Source: a virus (Duplodnaviria; Heunggongvirae; Uroviricota; Caudoviricetes). From it: a DNA stretch of 10,743 nt. The notes below the pieces were generated by a model that was not told where the DNA came from, searched no databases, and saw only the letters and a program-made list of their open reading frames with translations. This document shows positions 1 to 10,704 of the stretch, in pieces (positions within the stretch are counted from its first letter, which is position 1; the number at the start of each line of letters is the position of its first letter). The DNA lies in the IMG/VR virus record IMGVR_UViG_2690316267_000013. One strand, written 5' to 3'. A program made the translations under genes and the position numbers.

Positions 1-2334
1 TCAGGTTGTTGCAGGGTCGTCACATTTTGGCAGCCAGTCGCCGTAGCTTTCCTCTTTCAGCGTCAGGTTGGTCTGTATCCCCTGTTTGGTATGGCGCTTC
101 TCGTAATTCAGTCCGTATTCCTTCAGCATCACCGGCAGCCCCAGCCCGAACATTTTCAGACTGAGTACGTTCCGGTAGCCGTTTGCCTCCATGTAGGCCA
201 GATAGGCGTGATAGAGGTATTTACGGTAATTGCGCGGGATGATACTCGCGTTCCCCATATACATGCCGCTGGTCTGCGGCAGGGTTTCCAGATAGCCGAT
301 AAAATCAAACGTCGGGTCGGCATCCCGTTTGATGTTCAGCGCCTCGTCTGAGTTCTGCTGGGACTGAAGCAGTGACCGGGCGAGCATCGGGTCGCTGAAC
401 TTCTGCATCAGGTGACGCACGATGACCGCCAGCTCGCGGGTGATTTTGTCCTTAAGCTGCGGGTCGCGCTCCTGCGGGGCTATCTGTTCCGGGAAGTGAA
501 TAATCACCCGCCGGCGTGACACGCCGCCGCTGCGGTCGGTGAAGCGCATCGGGTTATTGTTCACGGCCAGAATCACCGCCGGGATGTGCGTGGAGTACGC
601 ATCCCGGTATTTCGGGTCAACGGACACCGCATCGCCGCCGGTGATGGCCTTGAGTCCGGCTCCGTCGCCGCTCCATTTTTCCTGGTCCGGCAGGCGTATC
701 AGTGAGAAGCCAGTTAACGCGGCACGTTCACGCGGGGATTCCAGCGTCTCAATGGTGGCCGACGTGGCGTTATCTTCCCCGGCCAGCAGGGTGGCTATTT
801 CGGCCATGATACTTTTGCCGCTGCCGCCGGGACCGGTCACCTCCAGAAAGAGCTGCCAGTCGTAGCGGTTTGCCAGCACCATAAACAGTGCGGCCAGAAT
901 CACGTCGCGTTTTTCCGCACGACCACCGGCGGCACGGTCAAGCCAGCGCCAGAACGCGGGGGCGTGGGTTTCCAGCGTTTCCCCTTCCACCGGCGGGGTG
1001 AAATCCACATCGCACAGGGTGCGCATCCAGTGTGACGGACTGTGCGGGTGGAACGTGCCGCTCTGCGTGTCGAGCACGCCGTTACGAAAGCCAATCAGGC
1101 GGCGGGAGGGGGCTTCCTGCTGCGGAATAATCAGCTTCAGGGTGTCCACCACGGAGGCCACCTTCCCGGAGGAGAACGGCGCGCGCAGCCGCTGAAACAG
1201 CCCGGCCACATCCCGGGCAAAGTCCTGTGGTGGCAGCACCTTCCAGACACCATTTTCATAACGGGACAGAAGCTGGCCGTTGGCATCGACCGCGAGCGCC
1301 TCGCCGTAATGCTCATAGATACGCATGGCCTTTTCGCTGGTACTCATGGCGGAAAACTCCGCTTCGCTCATGGTGTCGAACGGGCTTTCAGCCGGTGGCC
1401 GGATGGCATCATAAATGGCCTTACGGGTGGCTTCCCCGCCGTACTGCGTGAAGGCATCATTCCAGTCACCGAAGACCGGCGGCAGGGCAACAACACCTTC
1501 ACACGCATCTGCGGCTGCGGCGGCTTTTGTCTGGCCGTCACCGCTGAGGTCACGGTCAGCAGCAAGGACAATATGACAGGCCGGATGCTTCTGCCGGGCA
1601 AGGCTGGCCAGAGAAAGGAGGTTCACGGAAGAAAGCGCCACCATCACCGTTTCACCGGTCAGGTGATGTACGGTAAGTGCGGTCGCGTATCCCTCCGCTA
1701 TCCACAGACGTTTTCCGGCCTGATTCTGTCCTTCAAGGGTGTGACAGGTGCCCCTGACCTGTCCGCCTTTCAGGGTACGCTTACGGCCGTCAGCACTGAT
1801 TAACTGAAGGTTAACCAGTTCGCCGCTGTCGTCATACAGTGGCACCACAAGGTCACCGGCGCGCCAGCTCACGCCACCGGCTCTGTGTGTGCCGGTCAGC
1901 ATCCGGCATTCCCGGCCGGGAAAGCCCTTGCGGGTCAGGTAGGCGTTACCGGTTCCGGGACGGGTTTTTGCCATCAGGGTTTGTGCCAGTGCGGCGGCGT
2001 TCTTCCGGGCAGCGTCTGTTTCAGCAACGGCGGCGGCCGTCACTGCCGGGTCAGCCGGGGGCAGACTGCCGGTCACGGCAGCCACCTTTGCGGCCGCGTC
2101 GGACGGGGAGACACCAAACACCTTTTCAACCAGTTTCAGGCCGTCACCGGCACCACACTGATTGCAGTACCAGGTGCCGCGCCCCTCCCTGTCATCAAAA
2201 CGGAAGCGGTCACTCCCGCCACAGACCGGACAGGGCTGATGACGGTTTTTCAGCACCTGAATCCCCAGCGCCGGGAGAATACGCGGCCAGTGGCCGAGCG
2301 CATGGCTGACGGTGGCGGTTACGTTCATTTTCAT
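1..2334 (-). CDS. alpha: P4-type alpha replication protein: zinc-ribbon/TOPRIM primase fused to a P-loop helicase, 777 aa
   Basis: N-terminal Cys4 motif (CPVCGG...CNQCG), TOPRIM acidic motif (LAADRD), Walker A (GPGGSGKS). Length is identical to P4 alpha. SD aaggag lies about 9 nt upstream of the ATG at 2332-2334. Stop codon at 1-3. Confidence 0.9.
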   Translation of the reverse strand: MKMNVTATVSHALGHWPRILPALGIQVLKNRHQPCPVCGGSDRFRFDDREGRGTWYCNQCGAGDGLKLVEKVFGVSPSDAAAKVAAVTGSLPPADPAVTAAAVAETDAARKNAAALAQTLMAKTRPGTGNAYLTRKGFPGRECRMLTGTHRAGGVSWRAGDLVVPLYDDSGELVNLQLISADGRKRTLKGGQVRGTCHTLEGQNQAGKRLWIAEGYATALTVHHLTGETVMVALSSVNLLSLASLARQKHPACHIVLAADRDLSGDGQTKAAAAADACEGVVALPPVFGDWNDAFTQYGGEATRKAIYDAIRPPAESPFDTMSEAEFSAMSTSEKAMRIYEHYGEALAVDANGQLLSRYENGVWKVLPPQDFARDVAGLFQRLRAPFSSGKVASVVDTLKLIIPQQEAPSRRLIGFRNGVLDTQSGTFHPHSPSHWMRTLCDVDFTPPVEGETLETHAPAFWRWLDRAAGGRAEKRDVILAALFMVLANRYDWQLFLEVTGPGGSGKSIMAEIATLLAGEDNATSATIETLESPRERAALTGFSLIRLPDQEKWSGDGAGLKAITGGDAVSVDPKYRDAYSTHIPAVILAVNNNPMRFTDRSGGVSRRRVIIHFPEQIAPQERDPQLKDKITRELAVIVRHLMQKFSDPMLARSLLQSQQNSDEALNIKRDADPTFDFIGYLETLPQTSGMYMGNASIIPRNYRKYLYHAYLAYMEANGYRNVLSLKMFGLGLPVMLKEYGLNYEKRHTKQGIQTNLTLKEESYGDWLPKCDDPATT

Positions 2335-2348
2335 GGTGTTGTTCTCCT

Positions 2349-2669
2349 TCAGTGCAGTACCGGCGCTTTTATGTGACGGGCACAGAGTTCATCCATCACA
2401 ACCAGCCCGAGAAAGGACAGCGACGGCGCGGCCTTCAGGGGGCCGGATTCCATTAAATCTTCCAGCAGGGCACAGGCTATCTGACGCCCTTTTTCCTCAC
2501 CGTGCTGGCGCAGATAAAAGCCTTCCAGCTCAGCGGCGATGGCCGCCTCCAGTGACTCAAGGGTGAGATGCGGGTAGCGGTGCTGACGTTCGCACACGGT
2601 CAGCCAGGCACAGGCGACAGCGCGACGGTAAAGGGCAGCGCGTAAGACGGGCGGTAAGGGTGTTTTCAT
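2349..2669 (-). CDS. cnr: 106-aa protein immediately upstream of alpha; Cnr-like (P4 copy-number regulator) by size and synteny
   Basis: ORF of 106 aa with SD gggagg about 7 nt upstream of the ATG. Its stop (2349-2351) overlaps the alpha SD region. Same size and position as P4 orf106/cnr. The functional call is by synteny only. Confidence 0.55.
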
Positions 2670-2804
2670 TTGCTTTCCTCCCTGTGACAGATGACTGCAT
2701 TCCGTGCCGGTTGCATTAACTGATAAGGCATATCTGCGTCTCCTGAAGACGTGCGTATCCCTGCGCGAATACGCACATTTAATTTTTCGGGTGTCGTTTT
2801 TTAA

Positions 2805-3260
2805 TTACAGATAATTGCGGTAACTGTTATCCGGGGTGATTTCCGGGTCAGGCTCCGTGCGGGGAATTTCCCGCCATTCCCGCGCCACCGGTGCCGCCCG
2901 GCTGACCGGAACAGTGTCCTGCGGGTAAATATCCAGATATTTCTCCCGCCATTTCTGTAATTCCGGGTCTCCGGCCATTTCTTTCAGTACCGCATGCCGG
3001 TTTACGGGGCTGCGTTTGAACAGGTCAGGACGGTCACAGGTAAATTCCCGCAGAAAACGCCCCAGCGGGATGTCTGTGGTGCGCCCGTCAGCGAGGATAC
3101 GCACAAGGATACTGAATTTACGGCGGTACGGGTTCCAGACAATGTCCGGGCAGCGGTACGGCATTTCCCACGGAATACCGTCTTCCAGAATGCCGACCAC
3201 GGCCACATCGGGAAAACCGGCAGAACGGTAAATCTCACCGGGCTGGGGAAAATCAAACAT
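2805..3260 (-). CDS. Hypothetical 151-aa left-operon protein (P4 orf151 position and size)
   Basis: ORF of 151 aa. Its ATG (3258-3260) overlaps the stop of the upstream 95-aa gene by 8 nt (ATGTTTGA), suggesting translational coupling. No motif recognised. Confidence 0.6.
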   Translation of the reverse strand: MFDFPQPGEIYRSAGFPDVAVVGILEDGIPWEMPYRCPDIVWNPYRRKFSILVRILADGRTTDIPLGRFLREFTCDRPDLFKRSPVNRHAVLKEMAGDPELQKWREKYLDIYPQDTVPVSRAAPVAREWREIPRTEPDPEITPDNSYRNYL

Positions 3261-3540
3261 GCGTCCTGTCTCCCCGGTCTTTCTGCTGGGCGAGAAAATC
3301 GCGGCACAGGCCTTTGGCTTTCAGCTCATTCAGCACAAAATCAATATCTTCATTCAGGTAGCTGAAAATATGCGGAATGTAGAGCTGATGCAGGCCGGAG
3401 AGTTCACGGTGAATCAAATCACCCCCAACAAACTGGGATACGGCGCTGGCGCGGTTGAGCTTATGGTAAGCCTCAATGCTGAGGTGTTCACGGGCGTCAT
3501 GACGTGCTGAGACGGTCTGAGGGGCTTTTTTATTACGCAC
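3253..3540 (-). CDS. 95-aa protein with GTG start; possible equivalent of P4 epsilon (helper-prophage derepression) by position
   Basis: GTG at 3538-3540 is preceded by a strong SD (GGAGG, 6-nt spacer). It reads to TGA at 3253-3255. The ORF track merges this into a longer 177-aa ORF, but the SD-GTG context supports the 95-aa product. The functional call is positional only. Confidence 0.45.
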
Positions 3541-3730
3541 GGGACACCTCCACCACCGGCAGACGGGCAGCAAGGGAGAGCACATAGTCACGGACAAGGG
3601 AACGGCGGGCGCTGCGTTCATCACCGGCGACGGTGCGAAGCATACAGATACGGGGATGACGGCCTGCGCGACGGACAGCCGCAAACACAAAGACAAATTC
3701 AGGGTGTGAGGGGGTAAGGGTTGTAGCCAT
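3533..3730 (-). CDS. 65-aa first ORF of the left operon, Kil-like by position; its SD overlaps a seqC-like RNA target site
   Basis: ATG at 3728-3730 with SD AAGGAGG (plus-strand 3739-3745). Its stop overlaps the GTG of the next gene (GTGCGTAA). The ORF track extends this frame to 199 aa, but the upstream part is low-complexity and covers the immunity RNA region. Confidence 0.45.
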
Positions 3731-3741
3731 GATGGCAGCCT

Positions 3742-3782
3742 CCTTGAAGTAACAGTTACAGCTACCACTGGAGTTCCTACGC
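3742..3782 (-). promoter_or_regulatory. seqC-like target site (ccttgaagtaac ... gagttcctacgc) complementary to seqB of the candidate CI RNA
   Basis: Shares two sequence blocks with the site at 3963-3990. Both blocks are complementary to 3805-3828. Overlaps the SD of the 65-aa ORF. Confidence 0.5.
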
Positions 3783-3789
3783 TCATGGG

Positions 3790-3875
3790 TGGTAGCCCGG
3801 ACGGGGGTAGGAATACCGGCCTTCAAGGAAACCGGCCAGCCCGAAGGCTGCCCCGCCCGGACCACCATTATCTGA
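3790..3875 (-). ncRNA. cI: Candidate CI-like immunity RNA containing a seqB element (approximate boundaries)
   Basis: Non-coding stretch between the two target-like sites. It contains 3805-3828 (gggggtaggaataccggccttcaagg), the reverse complement of blocks in both flanking sites. A stable hairpin with a UUCG tetraloop on the minus-strand RNA lies at 3837-3850, and a possible closing stem pairs ggtggtccgg with ccgggctaccacc. Ends were not determined. Confidence 0.4.
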
Positions 3876-3962
3876 CAGAGGCTACGGTTTAAAAACCACA
3901 GCCAGAAAAACAGGTGTGCCGAAGCAACGACGTAAAAAAAGACGCATGGCGCGTCATATGTC

Positions 3963-3990
3963 GCCTTGAAGTAACTCGGGTTCCTACGCC
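3963..3990 (-). promoter_or_regulatory. seqA-like target site in the leader of the early leftward transcript
   Basis: ccttgaagtaac at 3964-3975 and ggttcctacgcc at 3979-3990, both complementary to the seqB-like element at 3805-3828. Confidence 0.5.
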
Positions 3991-4018
3991 CGGCTGCCGA
4001 TTTTGCGGCAGCGGAAAA

Positions 4019-4048
4019 ACTATATCCGCAAATGCCGGAAAAAGGCAA
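4019..4048 (-). promoter_or_regulatory. Candidate sigma70 early leftward promoter (PLE-like)
   Basis: On the minus strand: -35 TTGCCT (4043-4048), 18-nt spacer, -10 TATAGT (4019-4024). This would start the transcript about 20 nt upstream of the seqA-like site. By eye only. Confidence 0.35.
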
Positions 4049-4083
4049 GCCAGAAAAAGGGAGTTTTTGCAGAGCGGGCATCA

Positions 4084-4350
4084 TCATGCGTCGTACCCCC
4101 GTTTGCGTCCGGCAATGCGTCCGGCCATCCATGCGGTGACTTCAGAGTGCAGCCAGGCCACATTTTTACCGCCAAGACTCACCTGCGGCGGAAATTCCCC
4201 CTTACGGATGAGTTCATAGATGGTCGAGCGTGACAGGCCGCACAGGTGCATCACTTCCGGCAGACGTAAAAAACGCTCCTGCGTGATGTCCGGCAGCGGC
4301 ATCAGTGGCGTCACAGGGGCGGGAGACGGGGAAGAAAAAACAGCTTGCAT
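4084..4350 (-). CDS. vis: Vis/AlpA-family small HTH DNA-binding protein (late-promoter regulator and excision factor), 88 aa
   Basis: 88-aa ORF with SD gaggt about 7 nt upstream of the ATG. AlpA-like signature (LRLPEV...[16 protein letters not shown]). Same size and position as P4 vis (orf88). Confidence 0.75.
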
Positions 4351-4452
4351 CGGGCTACCTCGTTAATGTCCATACAGCACCGGATAAGTCCGTCCGGCTT
4401 CGGGTAGCGCTTTATTTTGTGAATATTTTTGGCAGACGCAACAGGGGGGATT

Positions 4453-4470
4453 TGTTCCGGCAGCCTTACA
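4453..4470 (-). promoter_or_regulatory. TGT-N12-ACA box (Delta/Ogr-type activator site) for the leftward late promoter (PLL-like) upstream of vis
   Basis: TGTtccggcagccttACA with exact 12-nt spacing, centred about 110 bp upstream of the vis ATG. Confidence 0.4.
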
Positions 4471-4496
4471 ATGACTGTGTGTTTTTTGTTCATTCC

Positions 4497-4525
4497 CACT
4501 TAAAGTCATTTAAAGCCACTTAAAG
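4497..4525. repeat. Three tandem 10-bp repeats CA(C/T)TTAAAG with one-helical-turn periodicity
   Basis: cacttaaag at 4497-4505, catttaaag at 4507-4515, cacttaaag at 4517-4525. Confidence 0.6.
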
Positions 4526-4629
4526 CAATTCGTAATTTTTATAGTGAAATACAAATCGTTTCTTCTTATTCATTCACGGCGAATTAATAAAAACAAACAG
4601 TAGTAAACAGCACAAAAAGTCCATGAGCG

Positions 4630-4733
4630 GGTGAACAGTGGTGAACAGACGGTGAACAGTCATTACTGCGATTGTTCACCCTTTAACTTACTGTATTACT
4701 TATCTTTTTTCTTATGGTGAACAGAGGTGAACA
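4630..4733. repeat. Iteron cluster: six copies of the P4 type-I octamer TGTTCACC (five as GGTGAACA, one inverted); putative alpha-binding origin
   Basis: GGTGAACA at 4630-4637, 4640-4647, 4651-4658, 4716-4723 and 4726-4733; TGTTCACC at 4673-4680. The cluster is flanked by a direct repeat aaacaaacagta at 4591-4602 and 4748-4759. Confidence 0.6.
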
Positions 4734-4812
4734 GTAAAATATAAAAAAACAAACAGTAAGCCGGTTTTTCCTGCGACCTTTTCCTGGCTTGCCGGTCTGA
4801 GGATGAGTCTCC

Positions 4813-4830
4813 TGTGTCAGGGCTGGCACA
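4813..4830 (+). promoter_or_regulatory. TGT-N12-ACA box (Delta/Ogr-type activator site) of the sid late promoter (Psid-like)
   Basis: TGTgtcagggctggcACA with exact 12-nt spacing, centred about 80 bp upstream of the sid ATG, consistent with a -55 activator site. Confidence 0.5.
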
Positions 4831-4902
4831 TCTGCAATGCGTCGTGTTGTTGTCCGGTGTACGTCACAATTTTCTTAATCTGAAGTGACGAGGAGCCGGA
4901 AA

Positions 4903-5637
4903 ATGTCTGACAACACCATCCCTGAATATCTGCAACCCGCACTGGCACAACTGGAAAAGGCCAGAGCCGCTCATCTTGAGAACGCCCGACTGATGGATGA
5001 GACCGTCAAGGCCATTGAACGGGCAGAGCAGGAAAAAAATGCGCTGGCGCAGGCCGACGGAAATGACGCTGATGACTGGCGCACAGCCTTTCGTGCAGCC
5101 GGTGGTGTCCTGAGCGACGAGCTGAAACAGCGCCACATTGAGCGCGTGGCACGCCGGGAGCTGGTACAGGAATATGACAATCTGGCCGTGGTGCTGAATT
5201 TTGAACGTGAACGCCTGAAAGGGGCGTGTGACAGCACGGCCACCGCCTACCGGAAGGCACATCATCACCTTCTGAGTCTGTATGCAGAGCATGAGCTGGA
5301 ACACGCCCTGAATGAAACCTGTGAGGCGCTTGTCCGGGCAATGCATCTGAGTATCCTGGTACAGGAAAATCCGCTCGCCAACACCACCGGCCATCAGGGC
5401 TACGTCGCACCGGAAAAGGCTGTCATGCAGCAGGTGAAATCATCGCTGGAACAGAAAATTAAACAGATGCAAATCAGCCTCACCGGCGAGCCGGTTCTCC
5501 GGCTGACCGGACTGTCAGCGGCAACACTCCCGCACATGGATTATGAGGTGGCAGGCACACCGGCACAGCGCAAGGTGTGGCAGGACAAAATAGACCAGCA
5601 GGGAGCAGAGCTTAAGGCCAGAGGACTGCTGTCATGA
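4903..5637 (+). CDS. sid: Sid, capsid size-determination external scaffold protein, 244 aa
   Basis: ATG at 4903 preceded by SD aggag with a 7-nt spacer; the ORF track starts 18 nt earlier at an in-frame GTG at 4885. Length from the ATG equals P4 Sid. Coiled-coil-like, Ala/Glu/Leu-rich sequence. Stop overlaps the delta start (ATGA). Confidence 0.85.
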   Translation: MSDNTIPEYLQPALAQLEKARAAHLENARLMDETVKAIERAEQEKNALAQADGNDADDWRTAFRAAGGVLSDELKQRHIERVARRELVQEYDNLAVVLNFERERLKGACDSTATAYRKAHHHLLSLYAEHELEHALNETCEALVRAMHLSILVQENPLANTTGHQGYVAPEKAVMQQVKSSLEQKIKQMQISLTGEPVLRLTGLSAATLPHMDYEVAGTPAQRKVWQDKIDQQGAELKARGLLS

Positions 5638-6134
5638 TTTACTGCCCGTCGTGTGGACATGTTGCTCACACCCGTCGCGCACATTTCATGGACGATGGCA
5701 CCAAGATAATGATTGCACAGTGCCGGAATATTTATTGCTCTGCGACATTTGAAGCGAGTGAAAGCTTTTTCTCTGACAGTAAAGATTCAGGAATGGAATA
5801 CATTTCAGGCAAACAGAGATACCGCGATTCACTGACGTCGGCCTCCGGCAGTATGAAACGCCCGAAAAGAATGCTTGTTACCGGATATTGTTGTCGGAGA
5901 TGTAAAGGCCTTGCACTGTCAAGAACATCGCGGCGTCTGTCTCAGGAAGTCACCGAGCGTTTTTATGTGTGCACGGATCCGGGCTGTGGTCTGGTGTTTA
6001 AAACGCTTCAGACCATCACCCGCTTCATTGTCCGCCCGGTCACGCCGGACGAACTGGCAGAACGCCTGCATGAAAAACAGGAACTGCCGCCAGTACGGTT
6101 AAAAACACAATCATATTCGCTGCGTCTGGAATGA
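5634..6134 (+). CDS. delta: Delta, late transcription activator with two Ogr-like zinc-finger modules, 166 aa
   Basis: Two Cys4 modules (CPSCGH...CRNIYC and CRRCKG...CTDPGC). Length equals P4 Delta. Start is coupled to the sid stop. Confidence 0.85.
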   Translation: MIYCPSCGHVAHTRRAHFMDDGTKIMIAQCRNIYCSATFEASESFFSDSKDSGMEYISGKQRYRDSLTSASGSMKRPKRMLVTGYCCRRCKGLALSRTSRRLSQEVTERFYVCTDPGCGLVFKTLQTITRFIVRPVTPDELAERLHEKQELPPVRLKTQSYSLRLE

Positions 6135-6207
6135 GGGCTGCCGGTTAACACCGGCCGTCGCCACACACCGTATTTTTATTCTTCAGCATGATGAGAAAGA
6201 GATAACG

Positions 6208-6780
6208 ATGGAAAGCACAGCCTTACAGCAGGCCTTTGACACCTGTCAGAATAACAAAGCAGCATGGCTGCAACGCAAAAATGAGCTGGCTGCGGCCGAA
6301 CAGGAATATCTGCGGCTTCTGTCAGGAGAAGGCAGAAACGTCAGTCGCCTGGACGAATTACGCAATATTATCGAAGTCAGAAAATGGCAGGTGAATCAGG
6401 CCGCCGGTCGTTATATTCGTTCGCATGAAGCCGTTCAGCACATCAGCATCCGCGACCGGCTGAATGATTTTATGCAGCAGCACGGCACAGCACTGGCGGC
6501 GGCACTGGCACCGGAGCTGATGGGCTACAGTGATCTGACGGCCATTGCCCGAAACTGTGCCATACAGCGTGCCACAGATGCCCTGCGTGAAGCCCTCCTG
6601 TCCTGGCTTGCGAAGGGTGAAAAAATTAATTATTCCGCACAGGATAGCGACATTTTAACGACCATCGGATTCAGGCCTGACGCGGCTTCGGTGGATGACA
6701 GCCGTGAAAAATTCACCCCTGCGCAGAACATGATTTTTTCGCGTAAAAGTGCGCAACTGGCATCACGTCAGTCTGTGTAA
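6208..6780 (+). CDS. psu: Psu, polarity suppression (Rho antagonist) and capsid decoration protein, 190 aa
   Basis: 190-aa ORF, last gene of the sid-delta-psu operon, directly upstream of cos. Same length and position as P4 Psu. Confidence 0.85.
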   Translation: MESTALQQAFDTCQNNKAAWLQRKNELAAAEQEYLRLLSGEGRNVSRLDELRNIIEVRKWQVNQAAGRYIRSHEAVQHISIRDRLNDFMQQHGTALAAALAPELMGYSDLTAIARNCAIQRATDALREALLSWLAKGEKINYSAQDSDILTTIGFRPDAASVDDSREKFTPAQNMIFSRKSAQLASRQSV

Positions 6781-6810
6781 AATTCCCCGAAAATCCGCCC
6801 GTTTTTACTG

Positions 6811-6849
6811 AAAAAAGCCATGCATCGATAAGGTGCATGGCTTTGCATG
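6811..6849. terminator. Hairpin terminator after psu, bidirectional (strong on minus strand, weaker on plus)
   Basis: 9-bp stem agccatgca/tgcatggct (6816-6824 and 6834-6842) with a 9-nt loop. It is flanked by A6 on the left (a U6 tract for minus-strand transcripts) and ttgcatgcgttt on the right. Confidence 0.5.
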
Positions 6850-6944
6850 CGTTTCCCTGCCTCATTTTCTGCAGACCGCGCCATTCCCGGCGCGGTCTGA
6901 GCGTGTCAGTGCAACTGCATTAAAACCGCCCCGCAAAGCGGGCG

Positions 6945-6963
6945 GGCGAGGCGGGGAAAGCAC
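6945..6963. other. cos site: 19-nt P2/P4-type cohesive-end sequence GGCGAGGCGGGGAAAGCAC
   Basis: Exact match to the 19-nt cohesive end shared by P2 and P4 as I recall it. Located between psu and the cargo gene, as in P4. Flanked by inverted repeats at 6872-6899 and 6977-7015. Confidence 0.7.
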
Positions 6964-7198
6964 TGCGCGCCCCCGGTTGGTGCTCGTTACTAATGTTTTT
7001 TGCGCCCGAGCACCGTCGGGAAGGGGCTGGGGGGGATAGGGGAGGTGCCTGACGTCGCGCGGTAATGTTGGTAAGTGTGCCGCTGATGGCTTCTGAGGGG
7101 AGTGGTAAATAGCCGCCTTTCGACGGTGTAGTGGGGAGAGTATTGCTTACAAACGTAATGAAATTGTTTGAGTAGCTAGGCTACTGCATAGGATTATT

Positions 7199-7228
7199 TT
7201 GTTCTGTTAATATATCCGTTAATATAGA
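7199..7228 (+). promoter_or_regulatory. Candidate sigma70 promoter of the cargo gene
   Basis: -35 TTGTTC (7199-7204), about 18-nt spacer, -10 TATAGA (7223-7228) in an AT-rich stretch. Direct repeat gttaatata at 7202/7205-7213 and 7219-7227 overlaps the spacer. By eye only. Confidence 0.3.
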
Positions 7229-7254
7229 TAGATTGATCCAATTGAGTTTAAGGA

Positions 7255-8964
7255 ATGAGTATGTTTCAGATATCAGCTGGAGTGTTCTTTGATTTAGATA
7301 AAATAGAAAAACACGATGGCACATTTGTTTTTTATTCAAATGTTGATGTGTCTTTCTCGGTGGAAAACACCTCCCCTCTTTTTAAAGCAAATAAAATAAG
7401 TCATGATGGTATAAACTGTTATGTGGTAAACTATACTCTCCTGACCGAAAAACCAGAACGAATTGAAGCTGGAGTCGTAGTTAGGGCTGGTGATGAGGAT
7501 TATAGGCAACAATTTATTTTATTATGGGAATTCTATTTTGATTGTGTGGCTAGAGTAGAAAAAGAATCGGTTAAAAAAATATGTGCATTATCAAATTTTA
7601 ATAAACATCACTCAAAAATTGCGCTTGAAGTTGCCCCATATTTAGTGGAGATTAATCGAAGAGTTTCATTTGATGATGTCTCTGGGTTTTCTGCTTTTAT
7701 TAAAGATGTAGTGAATCTAAATAGATCTGCCTTTAAATCTTTAATGGCAGCGTTAAAAATAATTAGTGATTCAAAAGAATCATTGTCAACCAACTTTGAC
7801 CTGACTTATTCCATGTTAGTCTATGCCTTGGAGTCTTTGTCTCAAAGAAATGATAACTATAAGTCTGATTGGGATGACTACGATCAAAAAACCAGAGGTG
7901 AATTAGAGTCTGTATTTGAGCATATGCCTGGTGAGGATGTTTGTAAAATTAAATCAATACTTATTGAAGGCAAACAATTCAGATTACAAAAAAGGTTCAA
8001 AGATTTTATACTGAAAAATCTTGAAGAAAATTATTTCAATGAAACAGAGAGATATCCAATCCGCTATAGCTTCCTTAGTAGAGCTTTAGATAATTTATAC
8101 AAAATCAGGTCTTCTTTTGTCCATGAGCTTAAGCCACTTGATGCAATGATCTCGAAAGCCTACAATCCTGTTGGTGATTGTCTGGTTCTTTTTGGCGAAC
8201 CTCACTTCAGTTACTCTGGATTGCTTCGACTTCTTCGCCATGTGATAATAAATTTTTGCCGTAAAAACTACAGTCAAAAAAGAGAGTCTGTTAATTGGGT
8301 GATGGAAACATCGGGTGTAATGGTTGCAGAGATATCTGCACAATATTGGCTCTGGAATGCAGACGGATTTACAGCTAAAAGTATAGCGAAGTGGTTTAGT
8401 GAATACCTAAATATGTTAAATTTAGGCGAAGTCACTGATTTGCAGTCTATCATGGACAAAATTGAGATAATCTATGATCAATCCAAAAAAGAATATAAAA
8501 ATGGGTTGTTGCATTTTTATTTCTTATATAACTTAATGCATAATGGAAATAAGGGTGAATGGCTTGAGTTTGCGAACAAGCGAAGTTCTATACTTGTTTG
8601 TGATATATATTGGTATTCATGCTCTCCATATTTATATAAATCATTTACTAATGTTTCAAATGGTATTGCTGATATAAAAACATTGAGAAACTTTTTGTCT
8701 TGTTTTAACGAATATGATAAAAATAAATTTAAGCCAAATCGTTTAAATCTCCCTGCAATGACCGAAGTAATTATGTTGGCTTGCGCAGCAAATTCATTCT
8801 TCAGAATTGGAATGTATCAAGACTATGTTTTAATGGGCAATAGAGCGATGAGAGAAATTGCTTCAGTAAAAGATGTATTTTATTATATAAAAGAACGATT
8901 AAGTAATTCACAACTTATTGAATTGGACGAGTGCTTGAGATTGTATAGAAAAAAGGGGGGCTAA
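7255..8964 (+). CDS. Low-GC cargo protein of unknown function in the cos-int hotspot (569 aa from the first ATG; 567 aa from the better-placed ATG at 7261); candidate anti-phage or abortive-infection protein
   Basis: Long uninterrupted ORF with SD aagga 6 nt before the ATG at 7261. Composition is AT-rich and Lys/Asn/Ile/Phe/Tyr-rich, contrasting with the GC-rich satellite core. No Walker A and no YxDD motif. One R-x4-H motif (IRSSFVHE, codons at 8104-8127). Occupies the position where P4 carries gop-beta-cII. Confidence 0.8.
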   Translation: MSMFQISAGVFFDLDKIEKHDGTFVFYSNVDVSFSVENTSPLFKANKISHDGINCYVVNYTLLTEKPERIEAGVVVRAGDEDYRQQFILLWEFYFDCVARVEKESVKKICALSNFNKHHSKIALEVAPYLVEINRRVSFDDVSGFSAFIKDVVNLNRSAFKSLMAALKIISDSKESLSTNFDLTYSMLVYALESLSQRNDNYKSDWDDYDQKTRGELESVFEHMPGEDVCKIKSILIEGKQFRLQKRFKDFILKNLEENYFNETERYPIRYSFLSRALDNLYKIRSSFVHELKPLDAMISKAYNPVGDCLVLFGEPHFSYSGLLRLLRHVIINFCRKNYSQKRESVNWVMETSGVMVAEISAQYWLWNADGFTAKSIAKWFSEYLNMLNLGEVTDLQSIMDKIEIIYDQSKKEYKNGLLHFYFLYNLMHNGNKGEWLEFANKRSSILVCDIYWYSCSPYLYKSFTNVSNGIADIKTLRNFLSCFNEYDKNKFKPNRLNLPAMTEVIMLACAANSFFRIGMYQDYVLMGNRAMREIASVKDVFYYIKERLSNSQLIELDECLRLYRKKGG

Positions 8965-8980
8965 CCCCTTTTATTTTTAA
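8949..8980. terminator. Bidirectional intrinsic terminator shared by the convergent cargo and int genes
   Basis: aaaagggggg-ctaa-cccctttt hairpin (G/C stem 8955-8968) with T-tracts on both sides (tttatttttaa on plus; U6 on minus). The stop codons of both genes (8962-8964 and 8961-8963) lie inside the loop. Confidence 0.5.
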
Positions 8981-10157
8981 CGTATTCTCCCCACCAATCC
9001 ATCAATTCAATTCGCTGCACGAGATAAGTAGAACGATTGTATGCTTTTCTAACTTCATTTTTATCACTGTGGGCTAAGGCAGACTCGATAACATCAGGAT
9101 TTAATCCAGCTTCATTCATGGCTGTACTTGCTATTGAACGTAATCCATGGGCAACTAATTTTCCGCCAAAACCAATACGTTTTAAAGCTGCATTTGCAGT
9201 CTGACTGTTCATTGGTTTCTTTGGGTCATTCCGACTCGGAAAAACATATTCACGATGAGCACTAATAGGCTTCATCACATTAAGAATCTCTAATGCCTGA
9301 GATGATAGAGGAATTATGTGTTCCCGTTTAGCCTTCATCCGTTCGGCAGGAATCGTCCAGAGCTTTGCATGAAGATCGATTTCTTCCCACCGAGTACTGG
9401 AGGCTTCAGAAGGGCGCACAAGAGTCAGGAGTTGCCATTCAATTAGACAGCGAGTCGGGATAGACAGATTTGACATGACTAAAGAACGCATCAGCTTTGG
9501 TAATTCTTCAGGTCGAAGCGTCGGCATGTTTTGTTTTTTTGGCTTTTCGAAGGCCATGCCAACACCTGATGCTGGGTTTGCATCAATCAAGCCAGTGTTA
9601 ACCGCATAAATCATTATTTCGTTAATGCGTTGCACCAGACGACGTACAGTCTCTAATGCCCCACGAGCTTTGACTGGCTCAAGTGCTTCGACCAATGTTC
9701 TAGCTTTGATCTGCTGAACGGGCATCTCACCAACGGCGGGGAATACATCTTTTTCCAATGAGCGCCAAATATCTTTTGCATAATCAGGGGTAACACTTTT
9801 GCTTTTGAGCTGAAACCAATTAGCGGCGACCGTCGAGAAAATACTGTCCTGTGCGATTTGCTGCTGTTCCTCTGCAATTTCAGCTTGAATTTGCGGGTCA
9901 ATTCCGTTGGCTAACAAGGAAAGGTAATCCGCTCTTAAGCGTCGGGCGTCAGCAAGTGAAAGGGCTGGGAAGGCTCCTAGCCCCATCATTGTCCGTTGCT
10001 TTGTTGCCGGACGTTGATAACGGAAACGCCATAACTTCTTACCGTTCGTTTTAACGAGTAGAAAAAGACCATCGCCATCATGCAACGTTAGATCCTTTTC
10101 TAACGCTTTAGCGCGCAGTACTTCTGTGTTGGTCAGGGGGCGTGTCGTTCTTGCCAA
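8961..10157 (-). CDS. int: P4-type tyrosine integrase (N-terminal arm-binding domain plus catalytic domain), 398 aa, TTG start
   Basis: N-terminus typical of P4-family integrases (LTNTEV...GLFLLVKTNGKKLWRFRYQ...LGAFPALSLADAR). Catalytic-type HGLR and C-terminal Tyr region (RKAYNRSTY). SD gaaggag lies 8 nt upstream of the TTG at 10155-10157. Adjacent to and co-oriented with ssrA. Confidence 0.9.
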   Translation of the reverse strand: MARTTRPLTNTEVLRAKALEKDLTLHDGDGLFLLVKTNGKKLWRFRYQRPATKQRTMMGLGAFPALSLADARRLRADYLSLLANGIDPQIQAEIAEEQQQIAQDSIFSTVAANWFQLKSKSVTPDYAKDIWRSLEKDVFPAVGEMPVQQIKARTLVEALEPVKARGALETVRRLVQRINEIMIYAVNTGLIDANPASGVGMAFEKPKKQNMPTLRPEELPKLMRSLVMSNLSIPTRCLIEWQLLTLVRPSEASSTRWEEIDLHAKLWTIPAERMKAKREHIIPLSSQALEILNVMKPISAHREYVFPSRNDPKKPMNSQTANAALKRIGFGGKLVAHGLRSIASTAMNEAGLNPDVIESALAHSDKNEVRKAYNRSTYLVQRIELMDWWGEYVKNKRG

Positions 10158-10341: not shown

Positions 10342-10704
10342 TGGTGGAGCTGGCGGGAGTTGAACCCGCGTCCGAAATTCCTACATCCTCGGTACTACAT
10401 GCTTAGTCAGTCTTTACATTCGCTTGCCAGCTGCGGACGGACACGCCACTAACAAACTAGCCTGATTAAGTTTTAACGCTTCAACCCCAGGCAGGGCTTC
10501 CACGCGATCTCTTTTGGGTTTGACCTCTCTTGATCCCCGTCCTAAGAGCGGAGGCTAGGGAGAGAGGGCTCTAAGCAGGTTATTAAGCTGCTAAAGCGTA
10601 GTTTTCGTCGTTTGCGACTATTTTTTGCGGCTTTTTACGAGGCCAACCGCCCCTCGGCATGCACCTTGGGTTTCGCAAATCCCGTCGAATCCAGAATCAG
10701 CCCC
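10342..10704 (-). ncRNA. ssrA: tmRNA (SsrA), 363 nt, enterobacterial type
   Basis: The reverse complement reads GGGGCTGATTCTGGATTCGACGGG ... and ends ...GTTCAACTCCCGCCAGCTCCACCA, matching E. coli tmRNA as I recall it. It includes the tag-peptide reading frame GCAAACGACGAAAACTACGCTTTAGCAGCTTAA (ANDENYALAA stop) at 10583-10615. Confidence 0.95.

Follow-up and report, generated by a model that had tools for sequence, protein, structure and literature searches.

What lies between the cohesive-end site (cos) and the integrase gene (int) of a P4-like satellite, and how did it come to be there? We addressed this question with a stretch of 10,743 nucleotides (IMG/VR record IMGVR_UViG_2690316267_000013), hereafter the window, which is a P4-like satellite prophage of Escherichia coli integrated at ssrA. 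Between cos and int, the window carries one gene, here called the cargo, which is convergent with int. A first-pass annotation of the sequence had read this region as an exchangeable accessory module, built of cos, a promoter of the cargo's own, the single cargo gene, and a terminator shared with int. Our analysis makes it very probable that the region, with this anatomy, is the accessory (defence) hotspot that P4-like satellites carry next to cos. For the cargo to be an anti-phage abortive-infection (Abi) RNase, we consider the case evenly balanced. Both the region and the locus are already in the literature, and the observation is largely correct but not new; the boundaries of the exchanged segment are what we add here.

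The identity of the element is given by its open reading frames (ORFs) and their Pfam matches, which include alpha (1-2334, - strand), sid, delta (Ogr_Delta), psu, and a tyrosine integrase. Window positions 1-6944 are 98% identical to positions 4636-11624 of P4 (X51522 / NC_001609), from alpha to the right cohesive end. Positions 6945-6970 correspond to P4 1-26, and beyond 6970 there is no P4 similarity. The three P4 proteins Gop, Beta, and CII, used as tblastn queries, found nothing in the window, in agreement with the first-pass annotation, which had described this module as absent. Over positions 6700-9100, the window matches E. coli SCPM-O-B-9504 at 100% identity and E. coli ATCC 8739 at 99.6%; in the latter strain, the element sits between ypjA and ssrA-smpB. 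The coordinates of the main features are listed in the table.

Features of the window from psu to ssrA
Feature	Coordinates	Strand	Description
psu	6208..6780	+	Last backbone gene before the hotspot; Pfam Psu, E 1.6e-88; 98% nucleotide identity to P4
Hairpin 3' of psu	6814..6844	+	In P4-homologous backbone; 13-bp stem, dG -21.5, z -2.9, followed by UUUGCAUGCGUUU
cos	6945..6963		P4/P2 19-nt cohesive-end sequence GGCGAGGCGGGGAAAGCAC; exact match to P4 1-19
Conserved heptamer TGCGCGC	6964..6970		Left junction; last bases common to satellites with different cargo
Filler	6971..7124	+	GC-rich (about 0.6), strongly G-skewed; found in E. coli carriers of the cargo only
Decayed cos-like sequence	7125..7143	+	GGTGTAGTGGGGAGAGTAT; 14/19 match to the Pectobacterium cos type GGCGTGGCGGGGATAGCAT
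AT-rich region travelling with the cargo	7130..7260	+	Candidate promoter, direct repeat, Shine-Dalgarno AAGGA at 7250-7254
Cargo gene	7261..8964	+	567 aa, WP_000486482 family, 'HEPN-TPR'; beta domain, HEPN, helical repeats
Bidirectional terminator-like hairpin	8951..8972		Holds both stop codons; 8-bp stem, A-run on one side, T-run on the other
Cargo-linked int tail	8961..8987	-	Last 8 codons, EYVKNKRG, plus stop; right junction of sequence homology
int	8961..10157	-	ssrA-type tyrosine integrase, 398 aa, mosaic; Pfam Arm-DNA-bind_3, Phage_int_M, Phage_integrase
ssrA (tmRNA)	10342..10704	-	Integration target; ARAGORN and RefSeq annotation of ATCC 8739

The content of the slot between psu and int varies. 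In a survey of 5426 complete E. coli genomes, the psu/cos flank was found in 2250 and this cargo in 19; P4 and more than 99% of E. coli satellites lack the region. In four other E. coli satellites at ssrA, whose integrases (Int) are 89-92% identical, the position is taken by unrelated cargo: a 293-residue hypothetical protein, a NACHT protein, a SIR2 protein with an ATPase, and a restriction endonuclease. The region lies between psu and int, adjoins cos, and is filled by five different cargos in these satellites, as is expected of the exchangeable slot proposed in the first-pass annotation. Cos was found in three of the four (L003, L004, and L006), where it is conserved, and these three remain conserved through cos and TGCGCGC and are unrelated from there on. 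P4 diverges at exactly the same point, which places the left junction at 6970/6971. Megablast matches of the flank from other satellites stop at 6971-6979, and the published cloned inserts pFR83 and pFR86 show the same left junction. The 291 nt from cos to the cargo ATG have blastn matches in the 19 cargo-carrying E. coli genomes only. The orientation of the cargo also varies among satellites. In E. coli ST2747 (L004:5956-5964), the NACHT cargo follows the int stop codon at a distance of 3 nt on the same strand, an operon-like layout that suggests co-transcription with int.

The right junction lies inside int. All Int proteins compared are conserved up to the residues WWG (8988-8996), after which each has a tail of 5-13 codons and a stop codon that differ from cargo to cargo. 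The Pectobacterium satellite with the same cargo ends in VFIKNKEG, similar to the tail in the window, and megablast alignments of other int alleles begin at 8984-8989. Alignment with P4 and the ssrA satellites, the check proposed with the first-pass annotation, thus maps the break points to cos plus TGCGCGC and to the int tail. We also considered the conserved CCCCACCA at this junction as a Chi-like recombination signal, and dropped it because its conservation follows from its coding for WWG, the last conserved Int residues. The body of int is a mosaic. Its att-proximal ~300 nt (10157-9860), at the end next to the attachment site (att), are 94-99% identical to the E. coli satellite L003, which has a different cargo, and 66-80% identical to the Erwinia and Pantoea satellites. 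The cargo-proximal ~200 nt (9160-8973) are 76-81% identical to L003, but their identity to the same-cargo Erwinia satellite is 86-87%. This mosaic structure points to a crossover inside int.

On the left side, the segment between the junction and the cargo consists of two parts with different distributions. In Enterobacter, Erwinia, Pantoea, and Pectobacterium, the homologous gene lacks the filler upstream. Local alignments of the filler to the psu-cos spacer of the window, to P4, and to the cos regions of these four genera were all non-significant (z -1.1 to 2.7). The only G-quadruplex-type motif of the window, GGGAAGGGGCTGGGGGGGATAGGGG, lies inside the filler at 7018-7042. The decayed cos-like sequence comes next and is contiguous with the block of homology to Enterobacter. 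It is located 117-135 nt before the cargo ATG, and the functional cos of Pectobacterium is located 129-147 nt before the ATG of its cargo homologue. More generally, in Erwinia, Pantoea, and Pectobacterium the ATG of this gene is preceded, at ~120-150 nt, by a cos or a cos-like sequence. From its sequence and position, the stretch at 7125-7143 is probably the fossil cos of a donor satellite. A second cos-like stretch at 7024-7042 was rejected, as it needs 6 mismatches or a gap.

These observations can be accommodated by the following scenario. A block foreign to P4 is joined, right after cos and TGCGCGC, to a backbone 98% identical to P4. The block comprises the filler, the probable decayed donor cos, the AT-rich leader, the gene, the hairpin, the last 8 int codons, and the diverged end of int. 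In the order of events that we infer, recombination would have refilled the slot through two crossovers, one at cos or directly beside it and the other, a homologous one, within int. Such a pair of crossovers would account for the sharp left border and the gradient on the right. The cargo itself would be a latent RNase that senses a phage cue through its non-catalytic domains, by analogy with other HEPN defence proteins; once activated, it might cut host or phage RNA and abort the infection. It would spread with the excised satellite, packaged as a whole in capsids of a helper phage (P2-type). The first-pass annotation had attributed packaging of the cargo to the adjacent cos. This does not hold, because everything between the att sites is packaged regardless of position; the adjacency of cos matters, if at all, for recombination.

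Several points weigh against this account. The fossil cos rests on 14 matches out of 19, with 0.29 chance hits expected window-wide, and is significant by position only. The evidence for the HEPN fold of the cargo, described below, comes from predicted structures, not solved ones. No convincing sigma-70 promoter lies upstream of the cargo, and the gene is broken by insertion sequences (IS) in 2 of about 20 E. coli carriers. The locus, cloned with its native upstream region as pFR83, is listed only among 'additional tested' systems and not among the validated ones (PMC9122126). Finally, a single int allele (at least 99% identity) is common to the E. coli carriers, all of them, and the cargo-int junction is the same in four genera, so free swapping of this cargo by itself is not observed.

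The last point raises the alternative that the movable unit is a cargo-plus-integrase module, possibly with the att region, in which the whole cos-distal arm was swapped and the cargo has long been inherited with int. Comparisons across genera fit this alternative. The 4-nt stop overlap with a 398-residue Int recurs in the Pantoea and Pectobacterium satellites, and the Erwinia cargo directly abuts int; across these genera, identity is 69-82% for the cargo, 77-89% for Int, and 58-60% for alpha. Compared with P4, the whole stretch from cos to att differs, and the two Int proteins are only 36% identical. However, int was not imported whole, since its att-proximal end is close to that of an E. coli satellite carrying another cargo, and distant from those of Erwinia and Pantoea. 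The four unrelated cargos accompanying Ints 89-92% identical also argue against a fixed pairing. In addition, homologues of the cargo occur without any int or P4 genes: in Klebsiella, resolvase, UmuD-like, and SRAP genes are the neighbours, and in Vibrio the gene adjoins an IS-disrupted Gabija-like pair. We therefore regard a linked cargo-integrase module as unlikely, and favour exchange of the slot through crossovers at cos and inside int.

The slot itself has been described before. Rousset et al. 2022 (Cell Host Microbe, PMC9122126) reported a psu-cos-variable locus-int hotspot in 5,251 E. coli loci, showed the transition from conserved to variable sequence beside cos, and noted that the occupant of the slot in P4 is gop-beta-cII, which gives protection against lambda and P1. 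Table S1A of that study lists NC_010468 with WP_000486482, and Table S2B, 'additional tested systems', lists pFR83 as 'HEPN-TPR', a one-gene P4 locus from ATCC 8739. The cloned sequence of pFR83 starts in psu, and its protein starts with MFQISAGVFF, as does the protein of the window. Literature searches found neither WP_000486482 nor 'HEPN-TPR' in the main text of any paper; the matches are in supplementary tables. A 2026 follow-up (PMC13586616) confirmed the hotspot on thousands of elements. The reading from raw sequence thus re-derives a published feature of P4-like satellites, and both locus and protein have already been tabulated, cloned, and tested.

Compared with the hotspot as presented in PMC9122126, the region has the same position, the same cos junction, variable content, and either cargo orientation, and nothing essential differs. 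The gop-beta-cII locus of P4 occupies the same slot between cos and int, with no sequence similarity and with three genes instead of one; cII adjoins int on the same strand as int, and gop and beta are read from cos towards int. Our refinements are modest: a right boundary that lies inside int, an int gene of mosaic sequence, a probable fossil cos, and a hairpin and int tail linked to the cargo. They were not found in the passages of PMC9122126 and PMC13586616 that were consulted. The boundaries of the exchanged segment found here, cos plus 7 nt and a point inside int, bear on a mechanism of cargo swapping that is so far unproven. The model in PMC9122126, in which recombination at the cos end is combined with another, homologous crossover, was proposed and not demonstrated; the mosaic int fits it. 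The locus may keep a readable record of cargo exchange, formed by the decayed donor cos and the cargo-proximal part of int of the Erwinia/Pantoea type. If true, this record would be direct sequence support for exchange by the cos end plus a homologous crossover in int.

We next consider what the cargo encodes. As the first-pass annotation had described, it is a single long ORF (7255/7261-8964, + strand) convergent with int (8961-10157, - strand); the RefSeq start is the second ATG, at 7261, 6 nt after AAGGA. The protein contains an Rx4H motif, R283-H288 (RSSFVHELKP), and both residues are invariant in 28 aligned sequences with identity down to 28%. In the AlphaFold2 model (pLDDT 85.5), a beta domain (15-63) precedes a central domain made of helices; a beta hairpin lies at 307-316, and residues 372-566 form helical repeats. 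The central domain has the helical-bundle fold of HEPN proteins in this predicted structure, giving a predicted order of beta domain, HEPN (about 125-345), and helical repeats. By motif and predicted fold, the cargo protein is a member of the HEPN superfamily.

Profile comparisons give weaker signals. Pfam reports no family above threshold in the cargo protein of the window, neither HEPN_Apea nor TPR. Among the 28 family members, HEPN_Apea (PF18739) is found below threshold in 7 (best E 0.011), and the PADLOC model Cas13-ApeA matches 16 (best E 7e-6). A Vibrio member scores 16.8 bits for HEPN_Apea against a cut-off of 24.4. For TPR profiles, there is one weak match to TPR_14 (E 0.074) in a distant family member. 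A search of PDB sequences with the family profile returned nothing (best E 0.55), and Foldseek with the full-length model against PDB gave no match at E 0.001 or better. The family itself is sizeable and uncharacterised. A word-indexed search gave 54 clusters, and an exhaustive profile search over 50%-identity clusters gave 775 representatives at E 1e-3 or better and 377 at 1e-30 or better. Nearly all representatives are full length (560-620 residues), and distant members come from Acidobacteriota, Firmicutes, Betaproteobacteria, and others.

Known HEPN systems differ from the cargo. To ApeA (Gao et al. 2020), the cargo has weak profile similarity through ApeA-type HEPN models, and true ApeA is also found in P4 hotspots (HEPN_Apea entries in PMC9122126 Table S1A). 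ApeA is all-alpha, with N and Mid domains and a C-terminal HEPN domain (335-583 in Ec2ApeA); it forms decameric rings and cuts tRNA anticodon loops upon deoxydinucleotide binding (bioRxiv 10.64898/2026.01.26.701840). In the cargo, by contrast, the HEPN domain is central, with the beta domain before it and the helical repeats after it. This domain order, together with HEPN_Apea scores below the gathering score, rules out that the cargo is an ApeA orthologue. HepT (of HepT-MntA) and AbiV are proteins of 130-150 residues controlled by a partner antitoxin or by expression, whereas the cargo is a single chain of 567 residues that has two further domains and lacks a partner gene beside it.

The upstream region of the cargo is partly conserved. 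The leader shares only 7130-7243 with the orthologues, where it is 74-76% identical to the upstream sequences in Enterobacter and Erwinia. A scan for the sigma-70 consensus on the + strand from cos to the cargo ATG found no match of at least 9/12 with 16-18 nt spacing. The best candidates reach 7-8/12, and the foremost of them combines a poor -35 element, TGCATA (7185-7190), with an extended -10 element, TGTTAATAT (7205-7213). A promoter of the cargo's own is plausible from this sequence; it would lie in 7185-7230 and be weak or regulated. Of the 'own promoter' in the first-pass annotation, the AT-rich upstream region (7151-7260, 30% GC) is thus present, and a consensus promoter is not. Just upstream of the cargo, GTTAATATA occurs as a direct repeat with two copies 13 nt apart (7205-7226), and in Enterobacter a 12-nt gap removes one of the copies. 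The repeat could be a regulator site or a pair of overlapping -10 elements.

The low GC content and the lack of a consensus promoter leave room for a different view of the cargo, as a silent or non-defensive passenger: a gene silenced by H-NS, an addiction toxin that stabilises the satellite, or a gene aimed at helper phages or rival satellites. The gene and its leader have 30-33% GC, which is typical of H-NS-bound DNA in E. coli. The two interrupted copies are in TOK-001 (L037), where an IS5-family element truncates the cargo, and in SCPM-O-B-7615 (L038), where IS1 lies inside the gene. Elsewhere the gene survives in remnants of the satellite from which cos and backbone are gone. In E. coli XJ34 (L036), the sequence from ypjA to ~7031 is deleted, cos included; in Enterobacter asburiae (L014), the gene stays at ssrA with only a fragment of psu and an internally deleted cos. 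The match in E. coli EC2641 starts at ~7108. The published record can be read in the same direction, since 7 of 19 tested systems gave robust resistance to phages in a panel of eight and pFR83 is not among the seven (PMC9122126), so that no anti-phage activity has been observed for the locus with its native upstream region.

Against a passenger, dN/dS is 0.05-0.11 in comparison with four orthologues, the Enterobacter remnant included, which indicates strong purifying selection; the cargo is a functional gene by this measure. The Rx4H motif is invariant across the aligned family. Homologues in unrelated bacteria are found beside defence genes: apart from the Gabija-like pair of Vibrio, the Paenibacillus homologue has an OLD/GajA-like ATPase as neighbour and the Acidithiobacillus one a type ISP restriction-modification enzyme. 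A PRTase-CE protein is a further neighbour of distant homologues. Moreover, 6 of 8 randomly chosen unknown P4 loci were protective when induced and challenged with 28 phages (PMC13586616), which makes one negative result on 8 phages weak evidence. No named newly validated system in that study resembles the cargo protein. We consider it rather improbable that the cargo is a passenger in any of these forms, with slightly less weight than the linked module. The cargo may instead be the founding member of an unvalidated single-gene family of Abi RNases with ~775 clusters in many phyla, and the published negative may reflect a small phage panel or poor native expression. That both hold jointly, a founding Abi RNase and a preserved record of cargo exchange, is a tentative proposal that we place somewhat below an even chance.

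The first-pass annotation had also placed sharp changes of composition at about 7040-7250 and at the int stop, and a GC analysis bears out the first of them. GC content is 0.56 in the backbone, 0.60 in 6964-7150, 0.30 in 7151-7260, 0.33 in the cargo gene, and 0.45 in int. In a three-segment likelihood model (log-likelihood gain 76.7), the left break is at 7141 (support 7127-7158), where GC falls from 0.53 to 0.33. This break is real and sharp, and is located ~170 nt to the right of the sequence junction at 6970/6971. The right break has its maximum likelihood at 9065 with a wide support of 8917-9340; GC stays at ~0.38-0.40 in the 3' third of int and then climbs to 0.47, so the change on this side is a gradient inside int and not a step at its stop codon. 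The gene is AT-rich in related satellites too. The cargo has a GC content of 0.32-0.33 in every host examined, and in Pantoea and Pectobacterium it stands at 0.32 against a backbone of 0.50-0.57, so related satellites do not carry it with backbone-like composition.

At the convergent junction, the cargo stop codon TAA (8962-8964) overlaps the int stop codon TAG on the - strand (8961-8963), and both are enclosed by the terminator-like hairpin that the first-pass annotation had noticed. The hairpin has a dG of -14.1 on the + strand and -10.4 on the - strand (z about -2.5 and -2.3). It has the form of an intrinsic terminator in both directions: the + strand was flagged by the scan, and on the - strand the stem is followed by UUUUUUCUAU. 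Judging from its sequence, it would stop both convergent transcripts in this compact genome. The hairpin is retained in Erwinia and Enterobacter and is weak in Pantoea; in Pectobacterium, it persists although the stem has changed on either side (AAAGAGGG/CCCUCUUU, z -4.2). In E. coli MCJCHV-1 (L006:5963-5990), where the cargo is a convergent restriction endonuclease gene, an unrelated 12-bp hairpin includes the int stop codon (dG -20.7, z -6.7). As this unrelated and stronger hairpin stands at the same place, a terminator at the cargo-int junction seems to be a recurrent solution. The cassette-like insulation suggested in the first-pass annotation describes the layout of this cassette, but it is not a general property of the slot, because the NACHT cargo of L004 abuts int on the same strand. 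The exchanged unit runs into int and does not end at its stop codon. That the composition shift and the hairpin are chance features of ordinary backbone has practically no standing: the z scores of the hairpin are modest, but the GC-model gain with its 30-nt left support interval, the absence of the region from P4 and nearly all E. coli satellites, and the hairpin conserved in Pectobacterium despite changes on both stem sides all speak against it.

Several smaller features surround the hotspot. The hairpin 3' of psu is likely the terminator of the sid-delta-psu operon and would part late transcription from the cargo. A 68-residue ORF with a GTG start lies across cos (6833-7039) and is annotated in some RefSeq records as the hypothetical protein WP_071587287; it has no Pfam match and is split in the packaged linear genome, and is therefore probably not a gene. 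No RNA family was found in 6600-9200 with Rfam at E 1 or better. CP4-57 of E. coli K-12 is a P4-family cryptic prophage whose integrase also targets the 3' end of ssrA; it is larger and degenerate, unlike the element studied here, which keeps a complete P4-type backbone and cos. In Erwinia rhapontici (L018:6001-7700), the tblastn match to the cargo orthologue comes in two overlapping pieces (residues 1-247 and 231-567), and the gene may therefore be a frameshifted pseudogene. A search of ATCC 8739 for att-site repeats showed only a 22-nt direct repeat near the ends of the element, GTATACCTAA(T/A)CGTATACCAAT, present in two copies 10,673 nt apart (L002:1836-1857 and 12509-12530); these could correspond to integrase arm sites or to the boundaries of the element.

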